From Acidobacteriota bacterium (GTDB taxonomy: Bacteria; Acidobacteriota; Vicinamibacteria; Vicinamibacterales; UBA2999): a stretch of DNA of 56,717 nt. The notes below the pieces were generated by a model. That model was not told the origin of the DNA. It did no database searches and was given only the letters and a program-made list of their open reading frames with translations. Positions 3,267-22,221 of the stretch are shown one piece after another. The stretch lies in assembly GCA_022842985.1 (NCBI GenBank), contig JALHON010000001.1:1-56717 (forward strand). Reading direction: 5' to 3'. The position numbers and the translations under genes were made by a program. How positions within the stretch are numbered: the first letter of the stretch is position 1; every line of letters starts with the position of its first letter.

Positions 3267-4016
3267 CTACGACGGCGGTTCGATCCGCGAGACCTCGTCG
3301 GCGACGAACGCCTGCCACTCCGCTTCGCTGCGCACCTCGAAGAGCGCGCGCATACGGTAGTGGCCCAGACCGCAGAGCTGCGAGCAGCCTACCTCCCACG
3401 AGCCGGTCGTGATGGGCGTGAACCACGTGCTCACGGGCAGGCCGGGCGTCACGTCCTGCTTCACGCGCATCGTGGCCAGCGTGAAGCTGTGGATGACGTC
3501 CTTGCTCGAGAGATGCACCACGGTGGGCCGGTCGACCGGCACGACGAGGATGCCGATGAGCACGAAGTCGTCGGCCGCCGCCGGGTCGCTGCGATCGATG
3601 CCGATGGGATCCGCGGCGGTGATGAGCGACGGCGTCGTGCGGCCGAAGCGCAGGTCGGGCCCGGGGTAGTGGAAGTTCCAGGCGAACTGCTCGGCCACGA
3701 CGCGCACTTCGGCGGCACCGGCCGGCGCCGGCCGCGCGCGCTCGAACCAGGCGGGCAGGGCCGAACCGGCGAGCAGCCAGACATCGCCGAGCACCACCGC
3801 GGCCACCGCCACGAGCGGCCAGCGCTGCCCGGCGGGCTTTCCGGGGGGCGCACCCGGCCGCGCGCGGAACTTCACGAGCATGATCGCGAAGAGCACGAGC
3901 CAGCTCAGGAAGATGAGCGCGCCTTCGGTGTGCGTGGCGGCGAGCACGCTGTCGAAGCGCGCCGCATGCGCCGAGGCGGGGGTGGGCAGCCAGCGGTTGA
4001 GCCACTCGCCGATCAC
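3267..4016 (-). CDS. coxB: cytochrome c oxidase subunit II (CuA subunit, no fused cytochrome c domain)
   Basis: ORF 3267..4016. Two N-terminal TM helices. CuA ligand pattern HSF...CSQLCGLGHYRM. The GTG start overlaps the upstream stop (GTGA). Confidence 0.85.
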   Translation of the reverse strand: MIGEWLNRWLPTPASAHAARFDSVLAATHTEGALIFLSWLVLFAIMLVKFRARPGAPPGKPAGQRWPLVAVAAVVLGDVWLLAGSALPAWFERARPAPAGAAEVRVVAEQFAWNFHYPGPDLRFGRTTPSLITAADPIGIDRSDPAAADDFVLIGILVVPVDRPTVVHLSSKDVIHSFTLATMRVKQDVTPGLPVSTWFTPITTGSWEVGCSQLCGLGHYRMRALFEVRSEAEWQAFVADEVSRIEPPS

Positions 4017-4219
4017 GGCGCCATCTCCGGGCGCGCGGCCGCCTCGGCCTCACGCGCGAGCGTCGCATCCTCCCGCACGATGGCCAGCGCGCCGCGCACG
4101 AGCGCGCCGACGACGATCATCGCCACGACGGCCATGAGCGCCACGCCGGCGTGCAGGCCGCTCGTCAGCAGCGAGTCGAACGGCCGCGCGCACACGACAC
4201 AGGCGATGACAGGGCTCAT
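4013..4219 (-). CDS. small hydrophobic oxidase-operon protein (possible subunit IV analogue)
   Basis: The last 68 codons of ORF 4013..4336, starting MSPVIACVV. It has ATGA overlap with the subunit III-like stop and GTGA overlap with the coxB start. One or two TM helices. No family recognised. Confidence 0.5.
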   Translation of the reverse strand: MSPVIACVVCARPFDSLLTSGLHAGVALMAVVAMIVVGALVRGALAIVREDATLAREAEAAARPEMAP

Positions 4220-4785
4220 ACGAAATACATCCCGACGACGATGCTGAACCAGACGACGAGCATCAGCCCCCAATAGCGCTGCAGTTGCCGCAGCGCGTGG
4301 ACCGGCGTCTCGGACCGGCGGTCGCGCCATGCCCACCAGGTGGCGACGAGGCCACCCCCCAACACGCCGAGCGCCAGTGCGCCGGTCAACACGAACCAGC
4401 TCGCCGCGGCCACGCTGGCGGCCGGCCCGCTGCCGGCCTTCAGCATCGCGTCAGCGGCGCCTGTCCACGCGAGTGCGACGCCCGACGCGGCCATCGTCGG
4501 CAGCCAGACGCCGATCGATCGCGGAGCGCCGGATGCGGCAGCCAGCCGCCACTGCCGTGTGTTGACGAAGGCAAGGACGAGCCAGAGGGTGTTCGACACC
4601 ACGAAGGGCTGAATCTTCCAGAGAATCGGCCGTGCCAGCCACGGCGTCGTCCACGTCTCACTGCCGGCTCTCAGCAGCACGTAGCCGGAGTAGAGCGAGG
4701 CGTAGAACATCACCAGCGAGGCCAGGAACAGCCACGTGCCGGCGTCGGCCGCGCGCGTGCGACGGGCGTCCACGCCAGGCGTCAC
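4216..4785 (-). CDS. heme-copper oxidase subunit III-like membrane protein (short form)
   Basis: The C-terminal 189 codons of shadow-extended ORF 4216..8058. W/L/F-rich with about 5 TM helices (WLFLASLVMFYASLYSGYVLLR...). GTG 4785 overlaps the coxA TGA (GTGA). Confidence 0.65.
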   Translation of the reverse strand: MTPGVDARRTRAADAGTWLFLASLVMFYASLYSGYVLLRAGSETWTTPWLARPILWKIQPFVVSNTLWLVLAFVNTRQWRLAAASGAPRSIGVWLPTMAASGVALAWTGAADAMLKAGSGPAASVAAASWFVLTGALALGVLGGGLVATWWAWRDRRSETPVHALRQLQRYWGLMLVVWFSIVVGMYFV

Positions 4786-6428
4786 GCCTGCCCCTCCTCG
4801 TAGCGATACGGCGCGCCGGTCACGACGGGCGGCACGGCGAAGTTCCCGGCCGGCGGCGGCGACGAGGTGGCCCACTCGAGCGTGGTCGCCTGCCACGGGT
4901 TCTCGGCCGGCACGCCCCGCTTCGCGCTCCACACCATGTTGACGACGAACACGAGCTGGAAGACGCCGAGGGCCACGGCGCTCCACGTCATGTGCGGATT
5001 CCACACGAGCGTCGGCTCGGCGAGCTGGTACTGCAGGCCGGCGTCGTACATCCGCCGGTTCACGCCCATGATGCCCATGAGGAACATCGGCAGGAAGACC
5101 GCGTTCATGGTCACGAACGAGCCGAGGAAGTGCACGAGGCCGAGCCGCTCGTCGAGCCGCCGTCCCGTGACCTTCGGGAACCAGTGATACACCGCCGCGA
5201 AGAGCGCGAACATCGTGCCCGGCGCCACCAGGTAGTGGAAGTGCCCGATGACGTAGTAGGTGTCGTGCAGGATGAGGTTGCTCGGGCCGAGCCCGAGCGG
5301 CAGGCCGGTCACGCCGCCCAGTCCGAACATCGGCAGGAAGGCGAGCGCGAAGCACATGGCCGTGGTGTAGCGGATGGCGCCGCCCCAGAGCGTGACGACG
5401 AGCGACGTGATGAGGATGACCGACGGCACGGACACGGCCATCGTCGTGATCTGGAAGAAGCTGCTGAGCGTGGTGCTCATGCCGGTGAGCAGCATGTGGT
5501 GCGCCCACACCACCATCGACCAGGCACCCAGGGCCACGACGGCGCCCACCATCAGCCCGTAGCGCCAGAGCGTACGCCGCGCGTGCGCGGTGATGACCTC
5601 GGCCACGACGCCCATCGCCGGCAGGATGAGCACGTAGACCTCGGGGTGCGCGAGGAACCAGAAGAGGTGCTGCCAGAGCAGCGGATTGCCGCCGCCGGAG
5701 ACCGCGAGCGGCGTGTTGCTCACGGCCAGGCCCGACGGCAGGAAGAAGCTCGTGCCGGCCACGCGGTCCATGAGCTGGAAGACGGCCGCGGCCTGCAGGG
5801 CCGGAAAGGCCAGCAGCAGGAGCAGCGCCGTCATCGCCTGCGACCAGACGAAGAACGGCAGCCGCATCAGCGTCAGGCCCGGCGCCCGGTAGGCGACGAT
5901 CGTGGCCAGCAGGCTGATGGCGCCGAGCATCGACGACACGCCCAGCATCAGGATGCCCACGAGCCACACCGTCTGGCCCGACGAGGCGAGGATGGCGAGC
6001 GGCGGGTACGACGTCCAGCCCGAGTTGGCAGCGCCCCCCGGTAGCACGAAGCTCGCGGCCATGAGCAGCCCGGCGGCCAGATACAGCAGGTAGCCGGCGG
6101 CGCCGAGGCGCGGAAACGCCAGCCCGGGCGCGCCGATCTGGAGCGGCACGAAGTACGACCCGAGCGCGCCGACGGCCATCGGCACGACGGCCAGGAAGAT
6201 CATGACCGAGCCGTGCATGGCCACGAGCTGGTAGTAGAACTCGGGCAGCAGGATGCCGCCGGGGGCGTTCGTCTCGCCGAAGATCGCCGTGGCGATGGGA
6301 ATCGGCTGCCCCGGCCAGGCGAGCTGCCAGCGGAAGAGCAGCATCAGCAGGAACCCGACCACCATGAACACGCCCGACGTGTTCGCGTAGGCGATGCCCA
6401 GCGTCTTGTGATCGGTCAGTCGCGTCAC
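4782..6428 (-). CDS. coxA: cytochrome c oxidase subunit I
   Basis: ORF 4782..6428, 548 aa and polytopic. Hallmark segments are VWAHHMLLTGM and VIGHFHYLVAPG (heme/CuB histidines). Confidence 0.92.
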   Translation of the reverse strand: MTRLTDHKTLGIAYANTSGVFMVVGFLLMLLFRWQLAWPGQPIPIATAIFGETNAPGGILLPEFYYQLVAMHGSVMIFLAVVPMAVGALGSYFVPLQIGAPGLAFPRLGAAGYLLYLAAGLLMAASFVLPGGAANSGWTSYPPLAILASSGQTVWLVGILMLGVSSMLGAISLLATIVAYRAPGLTLMRLPFFVWSQAMTALLLLLAFPALQAAAVFQLMDRVAGTSFFLPSGLAVSNTPLAVSGGGNPLLWQHLFWFLAHPEVYVLILPAMGVVAEVITAHARRTLWRYGLMVGAVVALGAWSMVVWAHHMLLTGMSTTLSSFFQITTMAVSVPSVILITSLVVTLWGGAIRYTTAMCFALAFLPMFGLGGVTGLPLGLGPSNLILHDTYYVIGHFHYLVAPGTMFALFAAVYHWFPKVTGRRLDERLGLVHFLGSFVTMNAVFLPMFLMGIMGVNRRMYDAGLQYQLAEPTLVWNPHMTWSAVALGVFQLVFVVNMVWSAKRGVPAENPWQATTLEWATSSPPPAGNFAVPPVVTGAPYRYEEGQA

Positions 6429-8401: not shown

Positions 8402-8875
8402 ATGACTGGTGTGTGCGGGTGGGTCAGGGCAGCGGTGTGCGCGGGCGTGACGGTGGCGGCGGGAGCCGCCTGGCTGGCGCCGGCGGCGCTCTCGGCCCAG
8501 CAGAAGGACGCCGCGACGGCGCCAGCGGCGGCTCCGGCCGAACTGCGCGGCAATGCCGCGCGCGGGCGCTACCTCGTGGAGCGCGTGGCGATGTGCGGAG
8601 AGTGCCATTCCACCCGCGACCAGGCGGGCGTCATCATCCCTGAGACGCGTCTGCACGGGGGGGCGCTGCCGGTGCAGGTGCCATGGCCGGCCGACTGGCC
8701 GCTCATCGCGCCGCGCATCGCCGGTCTGCCCGGCTACTCCGACGCCGAAGCCCTCCGCCTGCTCACCGAAGGTGCGATGAAGCGCATCGGCGGCCGGGCG
8801 CGCGCGCCGATGCCGCGCTTCCGGATGACCACGGAAGACGCCGCCGACGTCATCGCGTTCCTGCGCACGCAGTAG
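8402..8875 (+). CDS. monoheme c-type cytochrome
   Basis: ORF 8402..8875. Signal peptide ending APAALSAQQ. A single CGECH heme-binding motif, with a distal Met candidate in APMPRF. Confidence 0.75.
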   Translation: MTGVCGWVRAAVCAGVTVAAGAAWLAPAALSAQQKDAATAPAAAPAELRGNAARGRYLVERVAMCGECHSTRDQAGVIIPETRLHGGALPVQVPWPADWPLIAPRIAGLPGYSDAEALRLLTEGAMKRIGGRARAPMPRFRMTTEDAADVIAFLRTQ

Positions 8876-8955: not shown

Positions 8956-9534
8956 ATGGGCAAGGGCCGGCTCGAAGCGTTCAGCGACGGCGTGATCGCG
9001 ATTCTCATCACGATCATGGTGCTCGAGCTGAAAGTGCCGCACGAGGTCACGCTGGAGGCGCTCGGGCCCCTCTGGGGCGTGTTCCTGAGCTACGGGCTGA
9101 GCTTCGTGTACCTCGGCATCTACTGGAACAACCACCACCACATGCTGCACACCGTGCGGCATGTGACGGGCGGCATCCTCTGGGCCAACCACCATCTGCT
9201 CTTCTGGTTGTCGCTCGTGCCGTTCGTCACCGGGTGGATGGGCGAGAACCACTTCGCGCCGATCCCCACCGCCATCTACGGCGTGGTGCTGCTGATGGCG
9301 GCGATGTCCTACTGGATCCTGCAGCGCGTCATCATCCGCGCCCAGGGCCCCGACTCGCTGCTGCTGAAGGCGACGCGGAACGACTGGAAGGGCAACATGT
9401 CGCCCGTCGTCTACCTCGTCGGCATCGTCGTGGCGCCGTGGGTCCCGCTGGCGGCTGGCCTGCTCTATACCGTGGTCGCGCTTGTCTGGCTCGTGCCCGA
9501 CCGCCGCATCGAACGTGTGCTCCACGAGGGTTAG
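8956..9534 (+). CDS. TMEM175/DUF1211 family membrane protein (putative K+ channel)
   Basis: In the frame of ORF 8683..9534 from ATG 8956. Signature RLEAFSDGVIAILITIMVLEL, followed by about 6 TM helices. Confidence 0.8.
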   Translation: MGKGRLEAFSDGVIAILITIMVLELKVPHEVTLEALGPLWGVFLSYGLSFVYLGIYWNNHHHMLHTVRHVTGGILWANHHLLFWLSLVPFVTGWMGENHFAPIPTAIYGVVLLMAAMSYWILQRVIIRAQGPDSLLLKATRNDWKGNMSPVVYLVGIVVAPWVPLAAGLLYTVVALVWLVPDRRIERVLHEG

Positions 9535-9536
9535 CC

Positions 9537-9791
9537 ATGTCGATTGCCCAGAACCTCCGCGACTTCCTCCACGGCGTGGCCTACGGGCGCTACGAGCGTG
9601 AGCTCAAGCAGCAGGCCGCCGAGCTGAACGACTACTTCCTGCTGCTCTGTTACATGGAAGTGGTGGGGCTGCCGAACCCCGCGGCCTTCTATCTGCTCGA
9701 GGTCTACCCGCACCTGCTCGATCAGTTCCATCTCTGGCATCGGCGCATGGGCATGGACCGCTCGCCCGTCGGCAGCCTGCCGTGCTGTTGA
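9537..9791 (+). CDS. 84-aa small protein ending in Cys-Cys-stop
   Basis: The tail of ORF 8937..9791 from ATG 9537, 2 nt after the previous stop. Sequence MSIAQNLRDFLHG...SPVGSLPCC*. Third-position GC is high. It is immediately followed by the ArsA-like gene. Confidence 0.65.
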   Translation: MSIAQNLRDFLHGVAYGRYERELKQQAAELNDYFLLLCYMEVVGLPNPAAFYLLEVYPHLLDQFHLWHRRMGMDRSPVGSLPCC

Positions 9792-9793
9792 CG

Positions 9794-10726
9794 ATGCAGG
9801 GCCTGCTCGACCGCGAGGTCCTGTTCTTCGGCGGCAAGGGCGGCGTGGGGAAGACCACGTGCGCCGCGGCCATGGCGCTCGCGGCCAGCCGCGCCGGCCG
9901 CAAGGTGCTGCTCGTGTCGACCGACCCGGCGCACTCCACCTCCGACATCTTCGAGCGGCCGATCGGCGCCGACCCCACCGAGCTGCTGCCGAATCTCTGG
10001 GGTCTCGAGATCGACGCCGCCACCGAGTCGGCCCGCTACGTGCGCGAGGTGAAGGACCGGGTACGCGATCTCTTCGGGCACTCGATTCTCAAAGAGGCCT
10101 ACAAGCAGATCGATCTGGCTGCCAGCATGCCGGGGGCCGAGGAAGTGGCGCTCTTCGATCGCATGGGCGGGCTCATCCGCGGCGAAGACACGCGCTTCAA
10201 CCTCGTCATCTTCGACACCGCGCCCACCGGCCACACGCTGCGCCTCGTGAAGATGCCCGAACTCATGGACGCGTGGATCCGCGCGCTCACCAGGTCCCGC
10301 CGCGCCATGCTCGGCGTGGAGGGCGACGACAAGGAGGATCCGATCCTCATCTCGCTCCGGGATCGCTTCGATCGCCTGCAGGGGCTGCGGGCCCGGCTCA
10401 TGAGCGGCCGCACGAGCGCCTTCGTGCTGGTGCTCATCCCCGAGCGCCTGCCCATCGAAGAGACGGCGCGTGCGCTCGCGCAGCTCGACGAGACCGGCGT
10501 GAAGGTGGGCGGGCTCGTGGTGAACCGCGTGCTGCCGCGCGAGACCACCGACGCGTTCCTGGCCGCCCGCCGCGAGCAGGAACAGATCTATCTCGACGAA
10601 ATCGCCACCCGGTTCGCCAGCCGGCCGCGTGTGTATCTGCCGCAGTTCCGCCGTGATGTCTACGGCCTGGCGAGCCTCGGCCCGGTGGCCGACGCGCTCG
10701 CCGCCGCCACAGGAGTGAGTGCATGA
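9794..10726 (+). CDS. single-domain ArsA/Get3 (TRC40) family ATPase
   Basis: ORF 9782..10726. ATG 9794 gives MQGLLDREVLFFGGKGGVGKTT (deviant Walker A). Also STDPAHS and DTAPTGHTLRL. It has only one Cys, no CxxC, and no ArsA metalloid-binding cysteines. GTG 9782 is an alternative start. Confidence 0.88.
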   Translation: MQGLLDREVLFFGGKGGVGKTTCAAAMALAASRAGRKVLLVSTDPAHSTSDIFERPIGADPTELLPNLWGLEIDAATESARYVREVKDRVRDLFGHSILKEAYKQIDLAASMPGAEEVALFDRMGGLIRGEDTRFNLVIFDTAPTGHTLRLVKMPELMDAWIRALTRSRRAMLGVEGDDKEDPILISLRDRFDRLQGLRARLMSGRTSAFVLVLIPERLPIEETARALAQLDETGVKVGGLVVNRVLPRETTDAFLAARREQEQIYLDEIATRFASRPRVYLPQFRRDVYGLASLGPVADALAAATGVSA

Positions 10727-11241
10727 CCATCGGCCGTCCGCAGCCGGGCGATTACGCCCCGTTCTACCAGCCCTACCTCGACGCCACCGCGCCCATCGAC
10801 GACGCCCACGAGCTGCTGGCGCGCCAGAGCGACGTGCTTGCCTACATGGCGACGTGGCCGGAAGACAAGGCCGCGCACCGCTACGCCGAGGGCAAGTGGC
10901 GCGTGGTCGAGGTGGTGGGCCACATGGCCGACACCGAGCGCGTGTTCGCCTATCGCCTGCTGCGCATCGCGCGCGCCGACAGCACGCCGCTCTCGGGCTT
11001 CGACGAGAACGCCTGGCAGCTCGAAGCCGGCTTCGGGGCGCGCACGCTTGCCAGTGTCGTGGCCGAGCTGCGGGCCGTGCGGATGTCGTCGCTCGCGCTC
11101 ATCCGCTCGCTCGACGAGGCAGCCATCGAACGCGAAGGGGTCGCCAACGGCAAGCGCGTGACGGCTCGGGCGCTCGTGTGGCTCGTCGCCGGGCACTTCG
11201 CGCATCACGCCGGCATCCTGCGCGACAGGTACGGTGTGTGA
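10723..11241 (+). CDS. DinB superfamily protein
   Basis: ORF 10723..11241. ATGA overlap with the ArsA-like stop. The spaced His residues (VVGHMAD...VAGHFAHHAGIL) and four-helix-bundle-like composition are typical of DinB_2. Confidence 0.75.
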   Translation: MTIGRPQPGDYAPFYQPYLDATAPIDDAHELLARQSDVLAYMATWPEDKAAHRYAEGKWRVVEVVGHMADTERVFAYRLLRIARADSTPLSGFDENAWQLEAGFGARTLASVVAELRAVRMSSLALIRSLDEAAIEREGVANGKRVTARALVWLVAGHFAHHAGILRDRYGV

Positions 11242-12923
11242 GAACAGCGCTCGGCGGCGGCCTCGTCGGCGCCGCGCTGTTCGTGGCCGTGCTCGGCACG
11301 GCGATCGTGCGTCCGTCGAATCTCGGCTGGACGATGCGCCACGACCTCCAGACCTACGTGCTGGCGTGGACGCACTTCCGGCATGAGGCGTGGCACTGGC
11401 CGCCGGGGCGCATCGACGGCATCGGGTATCCGGTGGGCACGTCGGTCGGGAACACCGACGCGATTCCCGTCGTGGCGTTCGCGCTGAAGCCGTTCCAGGC
11501 GCTCATGCCGGAGCCCTCGCAGTTCCTCGGCGCGTGGCTGCTGCTCTGTTTCGTGCTGCAGGGCGTGTTCGGAGCGCTGCTGCTGCGACTGGCCACGCCC
11601 GACTGGCGGCTGCACCTCCTCGGCGCCGCGCTCTTCGTGCAGACGCCGGCGCTCTTCAACCGCCTGGGCCACCCGGCCCTCTGCGCCCACTGGCTGTTGC
11701 TCGCTGCGATCTGGCTCCTGGTGGACGGCATGCGGGGGGACCGCCTCTGGCATCGTGCGGCCTGGCTGGGGCTCGCCGCGCTCGTTGGTGCGGTGCAGCC
11801 GTATCTGGCCGGCATGGTGCTGTTGCTGGCGCTCGCGGCCTTCGCGAACCGCGCCTGGCGGGCCACGACGTGGACGCGCGCGGCGGCCGGCTTCGCGGCT
11901 GAGAGCGCCGCTGCCGGCATCGTGATGGGCGGCGTCTTCTGGGTGTGCGGGTACTTCCTCATCAGCGCATCGAGTCTGCAGTCCGAAGGGCTGGGGCTGT
12001 TCTCGATGAACCTGCTCGGCCCGATCATGGGCATGGGCTACACGACGCTCCTGCCAGAGATTCCGCTCGCGACGCCCGGGCAGTACGAAGGGCATGTCTA
12101 CTTCGGCATGGGCTGGCTGCTGCTCTCGGCCGTGGCTGTCGTGCTGCGCGTGCGCGCCGGGGCACCGGCGGCGCGGTTCGGCGCCGGCTGGCTGGCCGTG
12201 GCGGTCTGCACCGTCATCGCCATCAGCCCGGTCGTGACCCTCGGCGCGACCACGCTCGCGGATCTGAGCGAGTGGGCACCGGCGAGTTTCGCCACCTTCC
12301 GCTCCAGTGGCCGCTTCGGCTGGGTCACGATGTACTGCGTCTTCGCGCTCGTGGCCCTGACGCTTGCGAGCCGCCTGCCGCGCCGCGTGGCGATGGCGGC
12401 CTTCGCCGTTGCGATCGTCGTGCAGGGCGTGGACATGAGTGCGGCCTACCGCGCGCACTACGGGCGTGAACGAAATCCCGCGTGGACCGACTACGACTCC
12501 CCGGTGAAAAGCGCCGCCTGGACGGCCATCGTGCCCGCCTATCGCCACCTCGTGATGGCGCCGCCCGACATGTGCGCGGCCGTGTGGACGCCGGTGGCGG
12601 GGCCACACCTGCCGTACTCACTGCTCGCCGGGACCCATGGCGTGACGATCAACTCCGGGAACGCCGGCCGCTACGACACCGGAGCGATCCTGCGCTACTG
12701 CGCGTCGCTCGAAGCCGACGTCCGCGCGGGCCGTGTCAGCGACGACAGCGTCTACGTGCTCAGTCCGGCGATGCGCGCCGCCCTCGCCGCCGCCACGCCG
12801 GTGCCGCTCAGCTGCGGTGTGCTCGACGGCGTCGACGTGTGCGTGACGGCCGCCAGTGCGACGCGCTGGCGCGACGAGGCCAGCCAGGCGGGGTTCGCGG
12901 CGTCGACCGTCATCCCGCGGTGA
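11238..12923 (+). CDS. polytopic membrane protein, DUF6311-like (family assignment from memory)
   Basis: In the frame of ORF 10719..12923. GTG 11238 overlaps the DinB stop (GTGA). At least 10 TM helices in the N-terminal two thirds, then a soluble C-terminal domain. The N-terminal motif region is LGWTMRHDLQTYVLAWTHFRHEAWHWPPG. Confidence 0.6.
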   Translation: MRTALGGGLVGAALFVAVLGTAIVRPSNLGWTMRHDLQTYVLAWTHFRHEAWHWPPGRIDGIGYPVGTSVGNTDAIPVVAFALKPFQALMPEPSQFLGAWLLLCFVLQGVFGALLLRLATPDWRLHLLGAALFVQTPALFNRLGHPALCAHWLLLAAIWLLVDGMRGDRLWHRAAWLGLAALVGAVQPYLAGMVLLLALAAFANRAWRATTWTRAAAGFAAESAAAGIVMGGVFWVCGYFLISASSLQSEGLGLFSMNLLGPIMGMGYTTLLPEIPLATPGQYEGHVYFGMGWLLLSAVAVVLRVRAGAPAARFGAGWLAVAVCTVIAISPVVTLGATTLADLSEWAPASFATFRSSGRFGWVTMYCVFALVALTLASRLPRRVAMAAFAVAIVVQGVDMSAAYRAHYGRERNPAWTDYDSPVKSAAWTAIVPAYRHLVMAPPDMCAAVWTPVAGPHLPYSLLAGTHGVTINSGNAGRYDTGAILRYCASLEADVRAGRVSDDSVYVLSPAMRAALAAATPVPLSCGVLDGVDVCVTAASATRWRDEASQAGFAASTVIPR

Positions 12924-12950: not shown

Positions 12951-14567
12951 CTAGCCGAGCGTCGCCAGTTCGAGATTCGGGTTCTGCTGCTGCATGTAGG
13001 TGAGGTGCCACGGCGACTCGAAGAGCAGCACCGGCCGCTCGTCGCGGTCCACCGCGCGCAGCACGCCCGACGACCGGTTCTCGATGTCCGAGAGCGTCTT
13101 CGCGTCGGCCTTCACCCAGCGCATCGCCACGTACGAGATCGGATCGATCTTGCACTCGACGCCGTACTCCTGCTTGAGGCGCGCTTCCACGATGTCGAGC
13201 TGCAGCGGCCCGACGACGCCGAGGATCGGCTCGCGTCGGCCGTGCACCGGGAAGACCACCTGCATCAGCCCTTCTTCCTCGAGCTGCGTCACGCCGGCTT
13301 CGAACTGCTTCGAGCGCTGATCGAGCAGGCGGGCGCGTCCGAAGTGTTCGGGCGGGAAGCGCGGCACCGGCGGGTAGCGCACAAGCGCCCCGGCGTAGAG
13401 CGTGTCGCCGATGGCGAACTTGCCGGGGTTCGGCAGGCCGATGACATCGCCGGGATAGGCGCGTTCCACCGTTTCGCGCTCGCCGCCGAAGAAACGGTAG
13501 GGCCGCGTGGCCCGCACCGTCTCGCCGTCGCGCGCGTTCACGACCGCCATGTCCTTCTCGAACACGCCTGAACAGATGCGCACGAACGCGACGCGGTCGC
13601 GGTGCTTGCGGTTCATGTTCGCCTGGATTTTGAACACGAAGCCCGAGAACCCCGGCGCGAGCGGCGAGACCAGGCCCTGCTCCGTCATCCGCGGCTGCGG
13701 TGAGGGCGCCAGCGTCTCGAGTGCGTGCAGCAGCGCTTCCATGCCGAAGTTGTCGAGGGCGCTGCCGAAATACACGGGCGTCTGGTTGCCGGCCAGGTAC
13801 TCCGCGCGGTCGAAGGCCGTGCCGGCGCCCTTGATGAGCGCGGTGTCGCCGATGAGCGTCTCGTGCGCCTCCTTGCCGAGGATGTCGACGAGGATCGGGT
13901 CGCTCGCGTCGGTCGCGCGCACGGGCGCACGGAAGCCGCCGCCGGGCACGCGCTCGTAGAGGTGCGTCTCCTGCGTGACGAGATCGAACACGCCGCGGAA
14001 GCGATCACCGGAGCCGATCGGCCAGTTCATCGGCGCCGTCTGGATGCCGAGGATGCGTTCGATTTCTTCGAGCAGCTCGAACGGATCGCGGCCCGGAAGA
14101 TCCAGCTTGTTGATGAAGGTGAGAATCGGCAGCTTGCGCAGCCGGCAGACCTCGAACAGCTTGCGCGTCTGTGTCTCGATGCCCTTGGCGGCGTCGATGA
14201 CCATGATGACGCTGTCCACCGCGAAGAGCGTGCGGTAGGTGTCTTCGCTGAAGTCCTGGTGGCCGGGCGTATCGAGCAGCGTGACGCGGCAGGTGCCGAG
14301 GTCGAAGTCGAGGGCCGCCGAGGTCACCGAGATGCCGCGTTCGCGCTCGATGTCCATCCAGTCGGAGACCACGTGGCGCTGCGTCTTCCTGCCGCGCACG
14401 GCGCCGGCCAGTTCGATGGCGCCGGCATAGAGCAGCAGCTTCTCGGTGAGCGTGGTCTTGCCGGCGTCGGGGTGCGAGATGATGGCGAACGTGCGGCGGC
14501 GGCTGACTTCGGCGACGAGTTTGGGATCGACGGCCGACGGGGCATCCAGGGGTGTTTCGAGGCTCAC
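12951..14567 (-). CDS. prfC: peptide chain release factor 3
   Basis: ORF 12951..14567. GTPase motifs AIISHPDAGKTTLTEKLL, DTPGHQDF and NKLD. Full-length similarity to RF3 is recognisable. Confidence 0.93.
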   Translation of the reverse strand: MSLETPLDAPSAVDPKLVAEVSRRRTFAIISHPDAGKTTLTEKLLLYAGAIELAGAVRGRKTQRHVVSDWMDIERERGISVTSAALDFDLGTCRVTLLDTPGHQDFSEDTYRTLFAVDSVIMVIDAAKGIETQTRKLFEVCRLRKLPILTFINKLDLPGRDPFELLEEIERILGIQTAPMNWPIGSGDRFRGVFDLVTQETHLYERVPGGGFRAPVRATDASDPILVDILGKEAHETLIGDTALIKGAGTAFDRAEYLAGNQTPVYFGSALDNFGMEALLHALETLAPSPQPRMTEQGLVSPLAPGFSGFVFKIQANMNRKHRDRVAFVRICSGVFEKDMAVVNARDGETVRATRPYRFFGGERETVERAYPGDVIGLPNPGKFAIGDTLYAGALVRYPPVPRFPPEHFGRARLLDQRSKQFEAGVTQLEEEGLMQVVFPVHGRREPILGVVGPLQLDIVEARLKQEYGVECKIDPISYVAMRWVKADAKTLSDIENRSSGVLRAVDRDERPVLLFESPWHLTYMQQQNPNLELATLG

Positions 14568-14609: not shown

Positions 14610-15773
14610 ATGATTTCCACGCTCGCCATCGCCGGCTACCGTTCGCTCCGCGACCTCGTGGTGCCGCTCGGCCGGCTGACCCTCATCACCGGCCCCAACG
14701 GCTCCGGGAAGTCGAGCCTCTACCGCGCGCTCCGCCTGCTGGCCGAGACGGCGCAGGGCCGGGTGGTGCCGTCGCTCGCGCAGGAAGGCGGCCTGCCGTC
14801 CACCCTCTGGGCGGGGCCCGAACGTTTCTCGAAGGGCATGCGCGACGGCGAGGCGCCCGTGCAGGGCACGGTGCGCAAAGGCCCGGTGAGCCTGCGCCTC
14901 GGCTTCGGCGGCCCCGACTTCGGCTACGCCATCGACCTCGGGCTGCCGGCGCCGCCCGTAGGCGCCTTCGGCAACGATCCCGAGATCAAGAGCGAGGTCG
15001 TGTGGGCGGGGGATACGCTGCGCCCGGCGGCCGTGCTCGTCGAACGCAAGGGCGGCGTGGTGCGCACGCGCGAGGGCGGCCGCGACTGGGTGCTGCTCAC
15101 GCATGGGCTCGCGAGCTTCGACAGCATGATGACGCACTGCGCCGATCCGCGGCAGACGCCCGAGATGCTGCTGTTGCGCGAGCAGATGCGCGGCTGGCGC
15201 TTCTACGATCAGTTCCGTACCGACCACGCGGCGCCGGCCCGCCTCGCCCAGATCGGCACGCGCACGCCGGTGCTCGGGCACGACGGCGCCGACGTGGCGG
15301 CGGCCGTGCAGACGATTCTCGAGATCGGCGATCCGTCGGCACTCGACGCGGCGATTGCTGATGCCTTCCCCGGCGCCCGCCTGCGCGTCACCGTCCACGA
15401 CGGACGCTTCGGTCTGGAGATGCAGCAGCACGGGCTGCTGCGTCCGCTGCAGGCGGCCGAGCTGTCGGATGGCACGCTGCGCTACGTGCTGTGGGTCGCG
15501 GCGCTCCTCACGCCGCGGCCGCCCGACGTGCTCGTCCTGAACGAACCGGAGACGAGTCTGCACCCCGATCTGCTGCCGCCGCTCGGCCGCCTCATCGCGC
15601 AGGCGGCGCTGCACACCCAGGTCATCGTGGTGTCGCACGCCCCGACGCTCATCGAGACGTTGCGGCACGAGCGGAGCTGCTGGACGGTCACGCTGTCGAA
15701 GGCGCTCGGCGAGACGGCCGTTGAGGAAGCGTCCGGCCTGTCGCGTCCACCCTGGAAGTGGCCGGCGCGGTAA
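14610..15773 (+). CDS. AAA_21/ABC-type (SMC-like) ATPase of unknown role
   Basis: In the frame of ORF 13725..15773. MISTLAIAGYRSLRDL...ITGPNGSGKSSLYRAL (Walker A). ABC signature-like LSDGTLRYV. Walker B VLVLNEPETSLHP. ATG 14595 is an alternative start. Confidence 0.8.
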   Translation: MISTLAIAGYRSLRDLVVPLGRLTLITGPNGSGKSSLYRALRLLAETAQGRVVPSLAQEGGLPSTLWAGPERFSKGMRDGEAPVQGTVRKGPVSLRLGFGGPDFGYAIDLGLPAPPVGAFGNDPEIKSEVVWAGDTLRPAAVLVERKGGVVRTREGGRDWVLLTHGLASFDSMMTHCADPRQTPEMLLLREQMRGWRFYDQFRTDHAAPARLAQIGTRTPVLGHDGADVAAAVQTILEIGDPSALDAAIADAFPGARLRVTVHDGRFGLEMQQHGLLRPLQAAELSDGTLRYVLWVAALLTPRPPDVLVLNEPETSLHPDLLPPLGRLIAQAALHTQVIVVSHAPTLIETLRHERSCWTVTLSKALGETAVEEASGLSRPPWKWPAR

Positions 15774-18210: not shown

Positions 18211-20703
18211 CTACTGCTGCCGGCCCGACGTGACCGGCGTGCCCGGCGAGAGCGTGGTCGTCGACTCCGCCACCGATTCCACCTTGCCGCGCGAGTAGGC
18301 CACCGGGAAGTAGCGGCCGCGCGCCCAGAGTTCGAAGAGGTCGCGGTAGTGCGGACTGTCGGGATCGCCCGACTGGCCCGGCGTGTTCAGGCCCACGCTG
18401 TTGTCCCAGTTCTCGGTGTCGGCCACGATCTTGAGCGAACCGCCGCCTGTCTGGTTGTCCTGCCCGCCGGTCGCGCTCACCGTCGTGCCGTCGCCGCCGC
18501 GCGGGAACGGGCCCACCTCGAGCTTCTTCTTCATCTCGGCGTTCACCGCGTTCGAGAGCGGATGCCGGATGAGCGCATGGTGCAGCTTCTCGTCGCCCCA
18601 CTTCCAGGCCGCCATATCGGGCCCGAAGCGCGCCGTCACATCCGCCACGCCCTGTTCGAAGGCGGTGGTCACCATGGCATCGCGACCCTTCGTGGGCTCG
18701 GCGCCGAAACGGCTGTCGGGCGCCCAGAGGAAGTCGATGACGCGCTTGGTGCTGATGAGACCGGCCGGCACCGAGGCGCGCGCGGCGGCGGGAATCGAGG
18801 CCTCGCGGACGGCCGTGAAGAGGCGGCGCGAGAAGAGTTCGTAGACGGCCGCGGCGGCGGAGTTCTTGTCGAGCACGAAGTCCCAGCTGGTGACGGCATC
18901 GCGGGCCTTCGCCACAGCGGGATTCGTGAACGTCAGGTCGCGCAGCAGCGGCACGACCGCCCGGGCCGCGATCGACAGGTCGTCGTTCTGCAGCCGCGTC
19001 ATCTCGGCCACGCTGAAGCGGCGGCCCGAGCCGAGCACTTCCTCGATGCGGTGCGCGCGGTAGGGATCGGCCCACGTGTAGTGACGCGCGTTCGGGTACG
19101 CGTAGTCGTTCGGGTAGAGGTAGTGATTCGCGGTGGCGACGAAGCCGCGCGCCGGGTTCACTTCGTTCGGCAGCGCGTTGATCGGCAGGTAGCCGTCCCA
19201 CTCGTAGCGGCCATCACCCGGCACGGGCAGCAGGCCGCTCCACGAGCGCAGCGGCGTGATGCCGGCCGCCTGCCAGCCGATGGTGCCGGTCTTGTCGACC
19301 CACACCATGTTCTCCGACGGCATGCGGTTGTATGTGCAGGCCTCGACGAACTCGGCCCACGTCTTCGCCTGATTCATGCGCAGGCTCGAGAGATACGGCG
19401 CGCCGCCCTGCTCCATCCAGCCGGCCCTGAGCGCGTAGGCGCGGCGGTTGGCCGTGTCTTCGTGCAGCACCGGGCCGTGCTTCGTGAACTTGAGCGTGGC
19501 GGTCACGGCCGCCTGGCCCTTCACCGGAATCGATTCGGTGACGACACGCATCGCTTCCCAGCGGCCCTGGTAGCGATACTCGTTCGGGTTCGCGGGGTTC
19601 GTCTCGTAAACGTAGAGGTCTTCCGCGTCGGTGCCGAAGATCGTGAGGCCCCAGGCGCCGTATTCGTTGTGGCCGATCGACACGCCCGGCAGCACCGGCT
19701 CGCCGCCGCCGATGACGTTCCAGCCCGGCGCGACGAGGTGCACCCAGTAGCGCAGCGACGGCGCTTCGATGACGCGGTGCGGATCGTTGGCGAGGATCGG
19801 CATCGAACTCTGTGTCTTCGCGCCGCTCACCACCCAGTTGTTCGAGCCGATGTCGGTATCCACGATCCGGCTGCCGTCGAGCGAACGCGTGAGCGCGAGC
19901 CGTGAGCCGTCGCCGCCCGGCGCCTCAGCGTCGAGCGCCGCGCGGGCCTCGCCGCGGTACGCGGGCACGATGTCGCCGGGCTCGAAGCGGATGGTGTCGC
20001 GGAAGGCCGTGTAGGTCTTGAGCACGTCGGCCGGGAAGGTCTTCGGATCGATGAGCGGATCGAGCGTGAGCGGCGGGTCGCCGCCCTGCAGCCACAGCAG
20101 GTCCTTCAGGCGATCGGCGCCGAGGGCCGCCAGCGCGCGCACGTGCGTGGCTTCGTTCTCGACGTTCGACGTGAGCGCCTGGTGGCGCGAGATGACCACC
20201 TCGGGCGTCCACTTGCCGGGCGTGATGCCGAGCATGCGGAACTCGATCGGCAGCGTGGCCGGCGTGCGCATCGCCTCGTCGACCAACGCATTCACGCCGC
20301 GCACGTAGGCCTCGACGATCGTCTTGCCGCGCGGATGGTAATGGTTGAGCTCGGCGTCGAGGTTGCCGCGGAACTTGTGGAGGCGTGTGCCGATGTCGCG
20401 CGTGAGCTCGCGCGGTCCCAGGATTTCGGCCACCGTGCCGGTGGCGCGCCGCCGCCAGATTTCGAACTGGAAGAGGCGATCCTTTGCCGCCAGATACCCC
20501 TGCGCCATGAACAGGTCTTCCTCGTTCTGCGCGTAGATGTGGTTGATGCCCCAGCGGTCGCGGATGACCTCGACCGGCTGGCGCAGGCCTGGCACGGCCA
20601 GTGCCGCGCGGGCGCCCTGCGGCGGCGTCTGTGCGGGCGCCGCGGGCGGCGTGATGACGAGCGCGGCAACGGCGAGCAGGGCGGCGAGTCCGGTCTTCCG
20701 CAT
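18211..20703 (-). CDS. penicillin acylase family (peptidase S45, Ntn-hydrolase) amidase, secreted
   Basis: The C-terminal 830 codons of ORF 18211..22077 from ATG 20703 (GGAGGACGTC-ATG). Signal peptide MRKTGLAALLAVAALVITPPAAPAQ. Autoprocessing/nucleophile context DIGSNNWVVSGAKT...LANDPH. Confidence 0.88.
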   Translation of the reverse strand: MRKTGLAALLAVAALVITPPAAPAQTPPQGARAALAVPGLRQPVEVIRDRWGINHIYAQNEEDLFMAQGYLAAKDRLFQFEIWRRRATGTVAEILGPRELTRDIGTRLHKFRGNLDAELNHYHPRGKTIVEAYVRGVNALVDEAMRTPATLPIEFRMLGITPGKWTPEVVISRHQALTSNVENEATHVRALAALGADRLKDLLWLQGGDPPLTLDPLIDPKTFPADVLKTYTAFRDTIRFEPGDIVPAYRGEARAALDAEAPGGDGSRLALTRSLDGSRIVDTDIGSNNWVVSGAKTQSSMPILANDPHRVIEAPSLRYWVHLVAPGWNVIGGGEPVLPGVSIGHNEYGAWGLTIFGTDAEDLYVYETNPANPNEYRYQGRWEAMRVVTESIPVKGQAAVTATLKFTKHGPVLHEDTANRRAYALRAGWMEQGGAPYLSSLRMNQAKTWAEFVEACTYNRMPSENMVWVDKTGTIGWQAAGITPLRSWSGLLPVPGDGRYEWDGYLPINALPNEVNPARGFVATANHYLYPNDYAYPNARHYTWADPYRAHRIEEVLGSGRRFSVAEMTRLQNDDLSIAARAVVPLLRDLTFTNPAVAKARDAVTSWDFVLDKNSAAAAVYELFSRRLFTAVREASIPAAARASVPAGLISTKRVIDFLWAPDSRFGAEPTKGRDAMVTTAFEQGVADVTARFGPDMAAWKWGDEKLHHALIRHPLSNAVNAEMKKKLEVGPFPRGGDGTTVSATGGQDNQTGGGSLKIVADTENWDNSVGLNTPGQSGDPDSPHYRDLFELWARGRYFPVAYSRGKVESVAESTTTLSPGTPVTSGRQQ

Positions 20704-20753
20704 GACGTCCTCCAGGCGGCGCGCGGTCGTCCGGGACCGTCGGCCGGGCGCAG

Positions 20754-20759
20754 TATACT
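20754..20759 (+). promoter_or_regulatory. -10-like hexamer TATACT, 7 nt upstream of ATG 20767 (candidate leaderless promoter)
   Basis: An AT-rich hexamer in the 63-nt divergent intergenic region. No SD lies between it and the ATG. Confidence 0.35.
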
Positions 20760-20766
20760 GCTCAAA

Positions 20767-22221
20767 ATGCGCTTTGCCCCCGAGTACGTCACCCACGTAC
20801 TCACTGACAACTTCGAGGACGCCAAGACCCACCTGCTGGCGCCTCTCATGGACATCCACTACGCGCACCTGGTGATGCTCACCGAGTGCCACATCGTGTC
20901 GAAGGGCGACGCGCGCGTGCTGCGCGCGGCGCTCGACGGCATTTCCACCGCCGAGGTCGTGAAGGTGCCCTTCGACGGCACCTACGAGGACCTGTTCTTC
21001 TACCTCGAACACCTGATTGCCGAAGCCGCCGGGGAGCAGGTGGCCGGACGCCTGCACACCGCCCGCAGCCGCAACGACATCGCGATGACCACCTATCGCA
21101 TGTGGCAGCGCGAGAGCATCGCCGCGCTCGGGCACGGCATCCTGCGGCTGCGCTCGGCGCTCCTCGGCCTGGCCGCGCAACACATCCACACGATCTACGG
21201 CGCGCACACGCACACGCAGCCGGCCCAGGTGATGACGGTGGCGCACTACCTGCTCGCCGTCATCGAGCAGCTGGAACGTGACAGCAAGCGGCTCGAGGCG
21301 GCCTACCGCTCGACCAACGTGAACCCGCTCGGCGCCTGCGCCATCACCGGCACCGGCTTTCCGATCGACCGCCAGCGCACGAGCGCGCTGCTCGGCTTCG
21401 ATGCGCCCACCGGCAACACCTACGGCAGCATCGCCACGTTCGACTACGCGCTTGAAGGTGCCTCGGCCACGGCCGTCGCCATCGTCGGCCTGGGCCGCGT
21501 GGTGCAGGACCTGCTGCTCTGGGGCATGATGGAATTCGGCTACCTGCGGCTCGCCGACGGCTTCGTGCAGTCGAGCAGCATCATGCCGCAGAAGCGCAAC
21601 CCGGTCGCGCTCGAACACGCGCGCGGCATCGGCAGCCAGGCGGTGGGGCAGGCGCAGGCGATCATCACCGCGGTGCACAACACGCCCTTCGGCGACATCA
21701 ACGACACCGAAGACGACCTGCAGCCGCTCATCGCGTCGATGTACCGCGATGCCCTGCGCATGGTGTCGATCGTCGGCGCCGCGCTCAAGGACGCGCAGTT
21801 CAACATCGAGCGCATGGAGGCCCGCGCCGGCGAAGGCGGCACGACCATCACCGAGCTGGCCGACACGCTGGCGCGCGATCATGGGCTGCCGTTCGGCACC
21901 GCGCACAAGATCGCCGGCAAGGTCATCCGCGGCAAGAACGACCAGCCGTCGGCGTTGATGTCCGACCTGCTCGTGAAGGCGTCCACCGAGGTGCTCGGCG
22001 CGCCCATCAGCTACGACGAGGCCGCGATCGAGAAGGTGCTGAGCCCGCGCCACTTCGTCGAGATCCGGAAGACGCACGGCGGCCCGGCGCCGGAACGCAC
22101 GACCGAAGCCATCGCCCAGTCGCGCGCGGCACTCGCCGCCGATGAAGCGTGGTGGAAGGGCCGCAAGGACGCGCTGGCCCAGTCGGCGACGCAGCTGCGC
22201 GCCGCGGTGAAGGCGCTGTGA
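20767..22221 (+). CDS. argininosuccinate lyase family (fumarate-lyase superfamily) enzyme
   Basis: In the frame of ORF 20143..22221 from ATG 20767. TARSRNDI, HTHTQPAQ and the signature loop SSIMPQKRNP. It lacks the usual ArgH N-terminal LWGGRF segment. Confidence 0.8.
   Translation: MRFAPEYVTHVLTDNFEDAKTHLLAPLMDIHYAHLVMLTECHIVSKGDARVLRAALDGISTAEVVKVPFDGTYEDLFFYLEHLIAEAAGEQVAGRLHTARSRNDIAMTTYRMWQRESIAALGHGILRLRSALLGLAAQHIHTIYGAHTHTQPAQVMTVAHYLLAVIEQLERDSKRLEAAYRSTNVNPLGACAITGTGFPIDRQRTSALLGFDAPTGNTYGSIATFDYALEGASATAVAIVGLGRVVQDLLLWGMMEFGYLRLADGFVQSSSIMPQKRNPVALEHARGIGSQAVGQAQAIITAVHNTPFGDINDTEDDLQPLIASMYRDALRMVSIVGAALKDAQFNIERMEARAGEGGTTITELADTLARDHGLPFGTAHKIAGKVIRGKNDQPSALMSDLLVKASTEVLGAPISYDEAAIEKVLSPRHFVEIRKTHGGPAPERTTEAIAQSRAALAADEAWWKGRKDALAQSATQLRAAVKAL

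Follow-up and report, generated by a model that had tools for sequence, protein, structure and literature searches.

In Escherichia coli, the small proteins YbdD and YjiX (DUF466/PF04328) end in Arg-Cys-Cys-COOH and are encoded beside the transporter CstA or a paralog of it, and their relatives in Campylobacter end in Cys-Sec, Sec being selenocysteine (10.1101/2022.07.06.499078). Deletion of cstA reduces pyruvate uptake to 13% of the wild type and deletion of ybdD to 20%, with no extra effect in the double mutant (PMC5847655). YjiA belongs to the COG0523 GTPases and bears a metal motif, CXCC, in its switch I (PMC2770081). The gene orders cstA-ybdD and btsT-yjiX-yjiA were confirmed here in the annotated genome of E. 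coli K-12. CstA and BtsT import pyruvate and peptides; carriers of this kind are widespread and are induced by starvation, and YbdD is required genetically. In this work we analyze a five-gene locus (positions 8956-12923) located in a stretch of 56,717 nucleotides from an Acidobacteriota bacterium of the Vicinamibacterales (GenBank assembly GCA_022842985.1, contig JALHON010000001.1, positions 1 to 56,717; hereafter the window), in which an 84-amino acid protein that also ends in Cys-Cys is encoded next to an ATPase of the ArsA/Get3 superfamily.

That superfamily provides further points of comparison. ArsD works with pairs of vicinal Cys, ArsA has the secondary carrier ArsB as its docking site, and the cytosolic domain of Get1 is a helical hairpin that docks on Get3; C-terminal arms of the Cys-Cys or Cys-Sec type have precedents in thioredoxin reductases and MerA. 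A preliminary description of the locus had proposed that the small protein may be a client or adaptor of the ATPase, with its terminal dithiol as the functional end, and that the remaining genes could act on the same substrate. As detailed below, the window contains a new lineage member of a catalogued protein family, and what is new here is the linkage of that family to CstA and its parallel with YbdD/YjiX and YjiA.

The small protein and its conserved Cys-Cys end

The elements of the locus on which the analysis centers are the following:

9537..9791, plus strand: gene 2, cory-CC-star protein of 84 amino acids (NF041419, 90.6 bits)
9729..9740, plus strand: codons of the HxWH motif, His65-Leu-Trp-His68, at the end of helix 2
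9783..9791, plus strand: Cys83-Cys84 and stop codon (TGC TGT TGA), a direct reading of the sequence
9794..10726, plus strand: gene 3, single-domain P-loop ATPase of the ArsA/Get3 class, 310 amino acids (TIGR00345, 265 bits; PF02374, 258 bits)

The match of the gene 2 product to NF041419 ('cory-CC-star') covers residues 6-84 of 84 and lies above the curated cutoff of 80 bits, and homologues with 96% identity to it bear the precomputed domain PF25952 (DUF7990). Judged by its sequence, the protein is a member of the catalogued family NCBIfam NF041419 / Pfam DUF7990, and this bears out the suggestion, in the preliminary description, of a RefSeq family named for a C-terminal CC-stop. The terminal Cys-Cys is not a product of chance: it is present in 118/120 homologues of the window protein and in all of the 120 matches to a profile of distant members, the two exceptions looking like frameshifted or read-through gene calls. 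In 143 of the 144 loci that were extracted the protein ends in this dipeptide, and the next codon is TGA, TAG or TAA; the occurrence of all three stop codons indicates a true C-terminus and no Sec codon, and no Cys-Sec variant was found when one was sought in these 144 DUF7990 loci. Altogether, 238/240 homologues retain the Cys-Cys whose conservation had been singled out for checking, and the main (cory-CC-star) branch is essentially invariant for it.

Conservation extends beyond the last two residues. Over 118 non-redundant pairs of cory-CC-star protein and ATPase, the invariant positions are D32, F34, E41, P46, P48, P58, F64, H65, W67, H68, R70, G72, S76, P77, C83 and C84, and HxWH keeps a distance of 16 residues from the C-terminus in 237/237 homologues. 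Among cluster representatives, HxWH and terminal Cys-Cys occur together in 52, neither is present in 22, and 15 are mixed. The small protein is also better conserved than its neighbors: in one related locus (L040), for instance, its identity is 77%, versus 67% for the ArsA-like ATPase and 51% for the DinB-fold protein encoded by gene 4, and that of the locus L001 is 100% identical to the protein of the window. The window has close matches in metagenome-assembled genomes from Acidobacteriota of the Vicinamibacterales type.

According to an AlphaFold2 model based on a 127-sequence alignment (mean predicted local distance difference test score, 88.5), the chain would form a helix from residue 3 to 43, a GLPNP turn, a second helix from 48 to 70 and an extended coil tail from 71 to 84. 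The maximum Kyte-Doolittle hydropathy over 19 residues is 1.32, in a segment that spans the GLPNP turn, which argues that the protein lacks a transmembrane helix, and we predict a soluble helical hairpin followed by a tail of fixed length. No relative was found in the Protein Data Bank by sequence or by fold search.

In size the family is compact (211 clusters at 50% identity in 1.84 billion representatives), and in phylogeny it is broad: records named 'cory-CC-star protein' come from Halomonas, Pseudomonas, Luteimonas, other Gammaproteobacteria and Vicinamibacterales, and relatives are encoded in the genomes of at least 504 species. Literature searches found no paper naming cory-CC-star, DUF7990 or PF25952 and no functional study of the family, in line with its earlier characterization as a catalogued pairing of uncharacterized mechanism. 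The window protein shares the traits of the family, namely GLPNP, FHxWHRRMG, SP, the CC-stop and an ArsA-family ATPase alongside. Its clade differs from the other cory-CC-star proteins in that it ends in PCC, whereas most others end in RCC or SCC, in the absence of the CstA gene that typically lies upstream in most members, and in the presence of an extra cysteine, Cys38 (codon 9648-9650, within LLLCYME), found in 67/67 Vicinamibacterales-type proteins versus 0/51 CstA-linked ones.

Two peculiarities of the database records were observed along the way. Some nr and UniRef entries for cory-CC-star proteins (P0280, P0347, P0356) are named 'DNA helicase', which looks like a propagated misannotation. 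In addition, nine contigs (L013, L038, L052, L055, L057, L062, L068, L073 and L077) with Vicinamibacterales-like loci for the small protein, the ArsA-like ATPase and DinB, whose small proteins are 69-93% identical to that of the window, are titled 'uncultured Bifidobacteriaceae', 'Bifidobacterium sp.', 'cyanobacterium' or 'Bathyarchaeota archaeon'; these titles are probably taxonomic mislabels of metagenome-assembled genomes.

The partner ATPase

The product of gene 3 contains a deviant Walker A motif, GGKGGVGKT (9830-9856), and the motifs STDPAHS and DTAPTGHT, all of them near-invariant across the partner ATPases, and its score against TIGR00345 is above the cutoff of 135 bits. These features place it in the ArsA/Get3 superfamily, with a complete set of catalytic motifs. 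The nearest solved structures are 5zme, 3zq6, 1f48 and 3ug6. With Get3/TRC40, NosAFP and BagAB it shares the fold and the dimer architecture with a deviant Walker A motif, the solved structures of Get3 and archaeal ArsA being clear homologues. Its identification as NosAFP was rejected (67 bits, for a cutoff of 325), as were BagA and BagB of Mycobacterium tuberculosis (72 bits for a cutoff of 400 and 58 for 521, respectively); the literature on Rv3679, Rv3680 and Rv3678A added nothing of use.

As the preliminary description had indicated, the window ATPase has a single cysteine (residue 23, just past the P-loop) and no CxxC. The cysteine adjacent to the P-loop is mostly clade-specific (51/67 versus 3/51), the positions conserved among partner ATPases, mainly the generic motifs of ArsA/Get3, do not comprise a cysteine, and 25 of the 118 partners are entirely devoid of this residue. 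The lack of a conserved cysteine in the partner ATPases argues that any thiol chemistry would belong to the small protein. The score against TIGR04291, the equivalog for ArsA of arsenical pumps, is 148 bits for a cutoff of 650, and this value and the cysteine-free partners lend support to the earlier opinion that arsenite pumping is unlikely.

A conserved gene pair, linked to CstA in most lineages

Gene neighborhoods were counted by tblastn with defined queries and from contig annotations, in a genome set of 80 Vicinamibacterales-type loci (L001-L080) and a metagenome set of 80 loci of the larger branch. An ArsA-like gene lies directly 3' of the cory-CC-star gene in 80/80 genome loci and in 70/71 metagenome loci, and the two also adjoin in each of the individually inspected loci of Pseudomonas, Halomonas, GCA_900184245.1 and Acidobacteriota, with a spacing between called genes that ranges from a 10-nt overlap to a 38-nt gap. 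The co-occurrence of the small protein with ArsA-family ATPases, which the preliminary description had put forward, was seen everywhere it was sampled.

Beyond what the preliminary description contained, a CstA-family transporter is the conserved third partner in most other lineages. The order CstA (PF02554), DUF7990, ArsA-like ATPase was found in Pseudomonas sp. KB-10, Halomonas sp. HP20-15 and GCA_900184245.1, where the genes overlap or nearly abut, and CstA is directly upstream in 69/69 metagenome loci with enough flanking sequence. One database open reading frame (P0147) looks like a fusion of CstA and a cory-CC-star protein. No CstA gene is present in the 56.7-kb window or in L001-L080, nor within ~5-8 kb across 84 related Acidobacteriota loci. 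The window itself adds a lineage variant only, without CstA and with DinB and the extra cysteine. The CstA-linked DUF7990 proteins offer tractable organisms (Pseudomonas, Halomonas and Corynebacterium) in which the function of the family becomes experimentally approachable.

Divergent relatives provide some information on which part of the protein is connected with the ATPase. In the metagenome contig L173 (588-4169), CstA is followed by two tandem DUF7990 paralogs, which end in LIEM and DALF and have neither Cys-Cys nor HxWH, and by an ArsA-like ATPase; a related representative of 163 amino acids (P0204) has both DUF7990 copies fused in one chain. In L174, a DUF7990 protein of a type without the histidines, ending in QYDFCC, is encoded upstream of an ArsA-like gene. 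That relatives devoid of Cys-Cys or of the histidines still precede an ArsA-type gene argues that the link to the ATPase lies in the body of the hairpin; HxWH...CC is, by these sequences, a feature added in the main branch of the family.

Parallel with YbdD and YjiX of E. coli

Like DUF7990 proteins, YbdD and YjiX are small cytosolic proteins with a Cys-Cys-COOH end, encoded directly after a CstA-family transporter. Our alignment of DUF466 revealed two invariant histidines (H31 and H36) in addition to the terminal Cys-Cys, that is, the same inventory as in DUF7990. Moreover, yjiX stands directly before the gene of a SIMIBI-class P-loop NTPase, an order that matches the succession CstA, DUF7990, ArsA of the 69/69 non-Vicinamibacterales loci. 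There are also differences: YjiA is a G3E GTPase, whereas the partner of DUF7990 is an ArsA/Get3 ATPase; DUF466 includes Cys-Sec variants and none were seen in DUF7990; and the locus of the window, unlike those of E. coli, has no CstA.

Homology between the two small-protein families was examined in three ways and rejected. A search of 38 diverse members of DUF7990 for PF04328 gave no match at E<=10, and hhalign returned a probability of 2.5-5.8%, with only the last 7-8 residues aligned. The existence of a second, unrelated Cys-Cys-COOH family in the same slot, always with its own ATPase, argues that the dithiol end and an NTPase partner are the functional essentials.

Organization of the five-gene locus

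In the window, the pair is flanked by three other genes, whose family assignments, like those of genes 2 and 3, agree with the ones made in the preliminary description:

8956..9534, plus strand: gene 1, membrane protein of the TMEM175/DUF1211 type (PF06736, 107 bits)
10723..11241, plus strand: gene 4, DinB_2 superfamily protein of 172 amino acids (PF12867, 73 bits)
11238..12923, plus strand: gene 5, DUF6311 polytopic membrane protein of 561 amino acids (PF19830, 137 bits)

The close packing described for the five plus-strand genes was found at every junction. Gene 1 ends in TAG (9532-9534), and after a 2-nt gap gene 2 starts with ATG at 9537; gene 2 ends in TGC (9783), TGT (9786) and TGA (9789), its last base being 9791, and an ATG for gene 3 is found 2 nt further on, at 9794. 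Genes 3 and 4 overlap in ATGA (10723-10726) and genes 4 and 5 in GTGA (11238-11241). An in-frame GTG at 9782, made up of the last base of the Pro82 codon and the first two of the Cys83 codon, could also serve as start of gene 3 and would give a 10-nt overlap with gene 2, so that, as far as can be read from the sequence, the start of this gene is ambiguous between GTG 9782 and ATG 9794. Many loci have NNG before the codons of the Cys-Cys, and automated callers often pick the overlapping ATPase start (as in L081 and L083). The frequent spacing of -10 between the two genes is partly an artefact (NNG TGY makes a GTG start), and it was not used as evidence. Tight packing is by itself ordinary for bacterial operons, and scans of the region and the window for promoters, terminators, Rfam families and tRNAs were uninformative.

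The product of gene 4 scores above cutoff as DinB_2 and has His67, His158, His161 and His162. Its match to YfiT, of the bacillithiol transferase family, is weak (31.6 bits, cutoff 160), and that to a mycothiol S-transferase model lies just over the cutoff (29.7 bits versus 27). A DinB gene adjoins the pair in 61 of 73 testable Vicinamibacterales loci, and the loci without it belong mainly to the most divergent subclade; in L019, and also in L170, a locus fetched separately, it is found on the upstream instead of the downstream side. None is present in the 80 CstA-type loci. Hence, the association proposed earlier between DinB and the pair stands within the Vicinamibacterales and does not extend to the larger branch.

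Genes 1 and 5 are much less constant companions. TMEM175 is adjacent in 4-5 of 73 related loci, all of them with a small protein at least 93% identical to that of the window, DUF6311 is adjacent in 7/67, closest relatives only, and neither gene is found in the 80 CstA-type loci. In more distant Acidobacteriota the flanks are unrelated, with DUF5916, an O-methyltransferase, nuo genes (NADH dehydrogenase), MFS or hydrogenase genes. These data point to the five-gene layout being a recent local arrangement around a conserved pair. The conserved unit consists of two genes, those of the cory-CC-star protein and the ATPase, with DinB as a companion at the level of the clade.

Proposed mechanism and alternative explanations

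By analogy with the systems described above, we tentatively favor, with a confidence that falls a little short of an even chance, a mechanism in which the ATPase dimer has the hairpin as its dedicated partner, with the His2/Cys2 end of the hairpin as an arm for metal binding or redox chemistry, and in which the pair serves CstA in most lineages. We infer this mechanism from gene context and conservation. The hairpin body would dock onto the ATPase dimer as a dedicated partner or adaptor, the C-terminal end with two His and two Cys would act as a thiophilic arm, in the form of a metal site or of a vicinal dithiol with redox activity, and the exposure or loading of this arm would be under the control of ATP turnover. 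In most lineages the pair may then modulate or energize the CstA-family secondary transporter encoded upstream. Such an accessory role is suggested by the action of ArsA on ArsB, by the genetic requirement for YbdD and by the btsT-yjiX-yjiA arrangement with its metal-binding COG0523 GTPase. As for the chemistry of the arm, the Sec variants of the analogous DUF466 would lean to redox or nucleophilic chemistry, and the co-conserved histidines and the existence of metallochaperone-type NTPases would lean to metal handling. In the clade of the window, the pair may act in trans on a distant transporter or may have been re-used with DinB for thiol or metal chemistry; the lost linkage to CstA, the DinB neighbor and Cys38 together suggest trans action or a shift toward such chemistry.

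Several observations weigh against this proposal. The window clade has no nearby CstA, and therefore a role as transporter accessory may not apply to it. Five of the 89 DUF7990 representatives have the Cys-Cys without the His motif, which weakens the case for a strict His2Cys2 site. Given that DUF7990 and DUF466 show no homology beyond the last 8 residues, the parallel with E. coli is an analogy only. Finally, purified BtsT has reportedly been found to transport pyruvate by itself; if this holds, the pair of small protein and NTPase would not be obligatory for transport. A broader version of the proposal, which we consider doubtful, would see DUF7990 with its ArsA-like ATPase and DUF466 with YjiA as independently evolved versions of one unrecognized device, in which a SIMIBI NTPase works the C-terminal His2/Cys-Cys arm of a small protein to gate, energize or metal-load CstA carriers; in the Vicinamibacterales, this device would have been separated from CstA and joined with a thiol enzyme of the DinB fold.

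Other explanations can be considered for the same data. The terminal Cys-Cys could be a site of covalent modification, by S-thiolation or transfer through a DinB-type transferase or by lipidation of the Rab kind, and the ATPase would then handle the modified protein. The proximity of a DinB_2 gene with weak similarity to mycothiol and bacillithiol S-transferases, which is maintained even when that gene has moved upstream, and the clade-specific Cys38 are consistent with such a role. However, DinB is missing from the much larger CstA-linked branch and so is unable to explain a universal Cys-Cys, HxWH at a fixed spacing is more in keeping with coordination or catalysis than with a simple acceptor site, and no acyl- or prenyl-transferase genes were seen in the inspected loci, all of which makes this explanation unlikely. 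Targeting of the Get3 type, with the ATPase as the chaperone that brings the small protein, or some other hydrophobic client with a tail anchor, to the membrane, seems quite unlikely to us. The ATPase is homologous to Get3/TRC40, the small protein has a hydrophobic central stretch and a predicted hairpin shape reminiscent of the Get3-docking domain of Get1, and membrane-protein genes stand beside the pair (TMEM175 and DUF6311 in the window, CstA elsewhere). The system nevertheless differs from Get3 in having no CxxC zinc site, no partner with a segment of transmembrane grade, as its maximum hydropathy indicates, and no counterparts of Get1, Get2 or Get4; the scores against the NosAFP and BagA models are far below their cutoffs, and the one-to-one pairing and the invariant His and Cys residues fit a dedicated partner rather than a general pool of clients.

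The reading of the locus as a single five-gene pathway, with TMEM175, DinB and DUF6311 sharing a substrate with the small protein and the ATPase, takes its support from the junctions (2 nt, 2 nt, -4 nt and -4 nt), which suggest a single transcript and translational coupling, and from the identical order in the nearest relatives, L001, L002 and L005. It has been largely refuted by the comparative context, that is, by the low counts for TMEM175 and DUF6311 given above and by the presence elsewhere of cytochrome c, DUF5916, methyltransferase or nuo genes upstream of the pair, and we regard it as very unlikely; this part of the preliminary description was not borne out. Lowest of all, in our estimation, is the likelihood of a metalloid system of the ArsD/ArsA type, in which the small protein would pass As(III) or Sb(III) to an ATPase that powers an efflux carrier; this we consider extremely unlikely. 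The two are alike in that ArsD-ArsA-ArsB also combines an ATPase of the ArsA superfamily, a small protein with vicinal Cys and a secondary transporter, and the CstA-linked loci of other lineages resemble arsDAB in this respect. ArsA, however, consists of two fused halves with metalloid-binding Cys, whereas the window ATPase is a single domain of 310 amino acids whose one Cys is not conserved, and the equivalog score and the Cys-free partners mentioned above point in the same direction. Furthermore, no match to ArsD families was obtained at E<=10, ArsB, Acr3, ArsC and ArsR were not seen among the scanned neighbors of the window or in the other inspected loci, and the linked transporter, CstA, is an importer of pyruvate and peptides.

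Genes flanking the locus in the window

The ten neighboring open reading frames that were scanned, between ~1.2 and 22 kb of the window, contain no ars genes, as the preliminary description had remarked of the surroundings. They include cytochrome oxidase subunits, an M61 peptidase, a cytochrome c, prfC, an AAA_21 ATPase and a penicillin amidase. Subunits II and I of cytochrome c oxidase are encoded at 3267-6428 (minus strand) and a small cytochrome c at 8402-8875, shortly before the module; several close relatives have a cytochrome c gene, instead of TMEM175, immediately upstream of the cory-CC-star gene.

On the other side, positions 14649-15773 encode a 374-amino acid ATPase of the AAA_21/AAA_15 (AbiEii-like) type, a kind of protein that often forms part of defense or toxin-antitoxin systems. 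Its gene is divergent from prfC (12951-14567, minus strand). Further downstream, an open reading frame of 1288 amino acids (18211-22077, minus strand) matches penicillin amidase (PF01804) only in residues 501-1267, and the preceding ~500 residues could be an N-terminal extension without a Pfam match or, possibly, the product of an over-extended start call in high-GC DNA.

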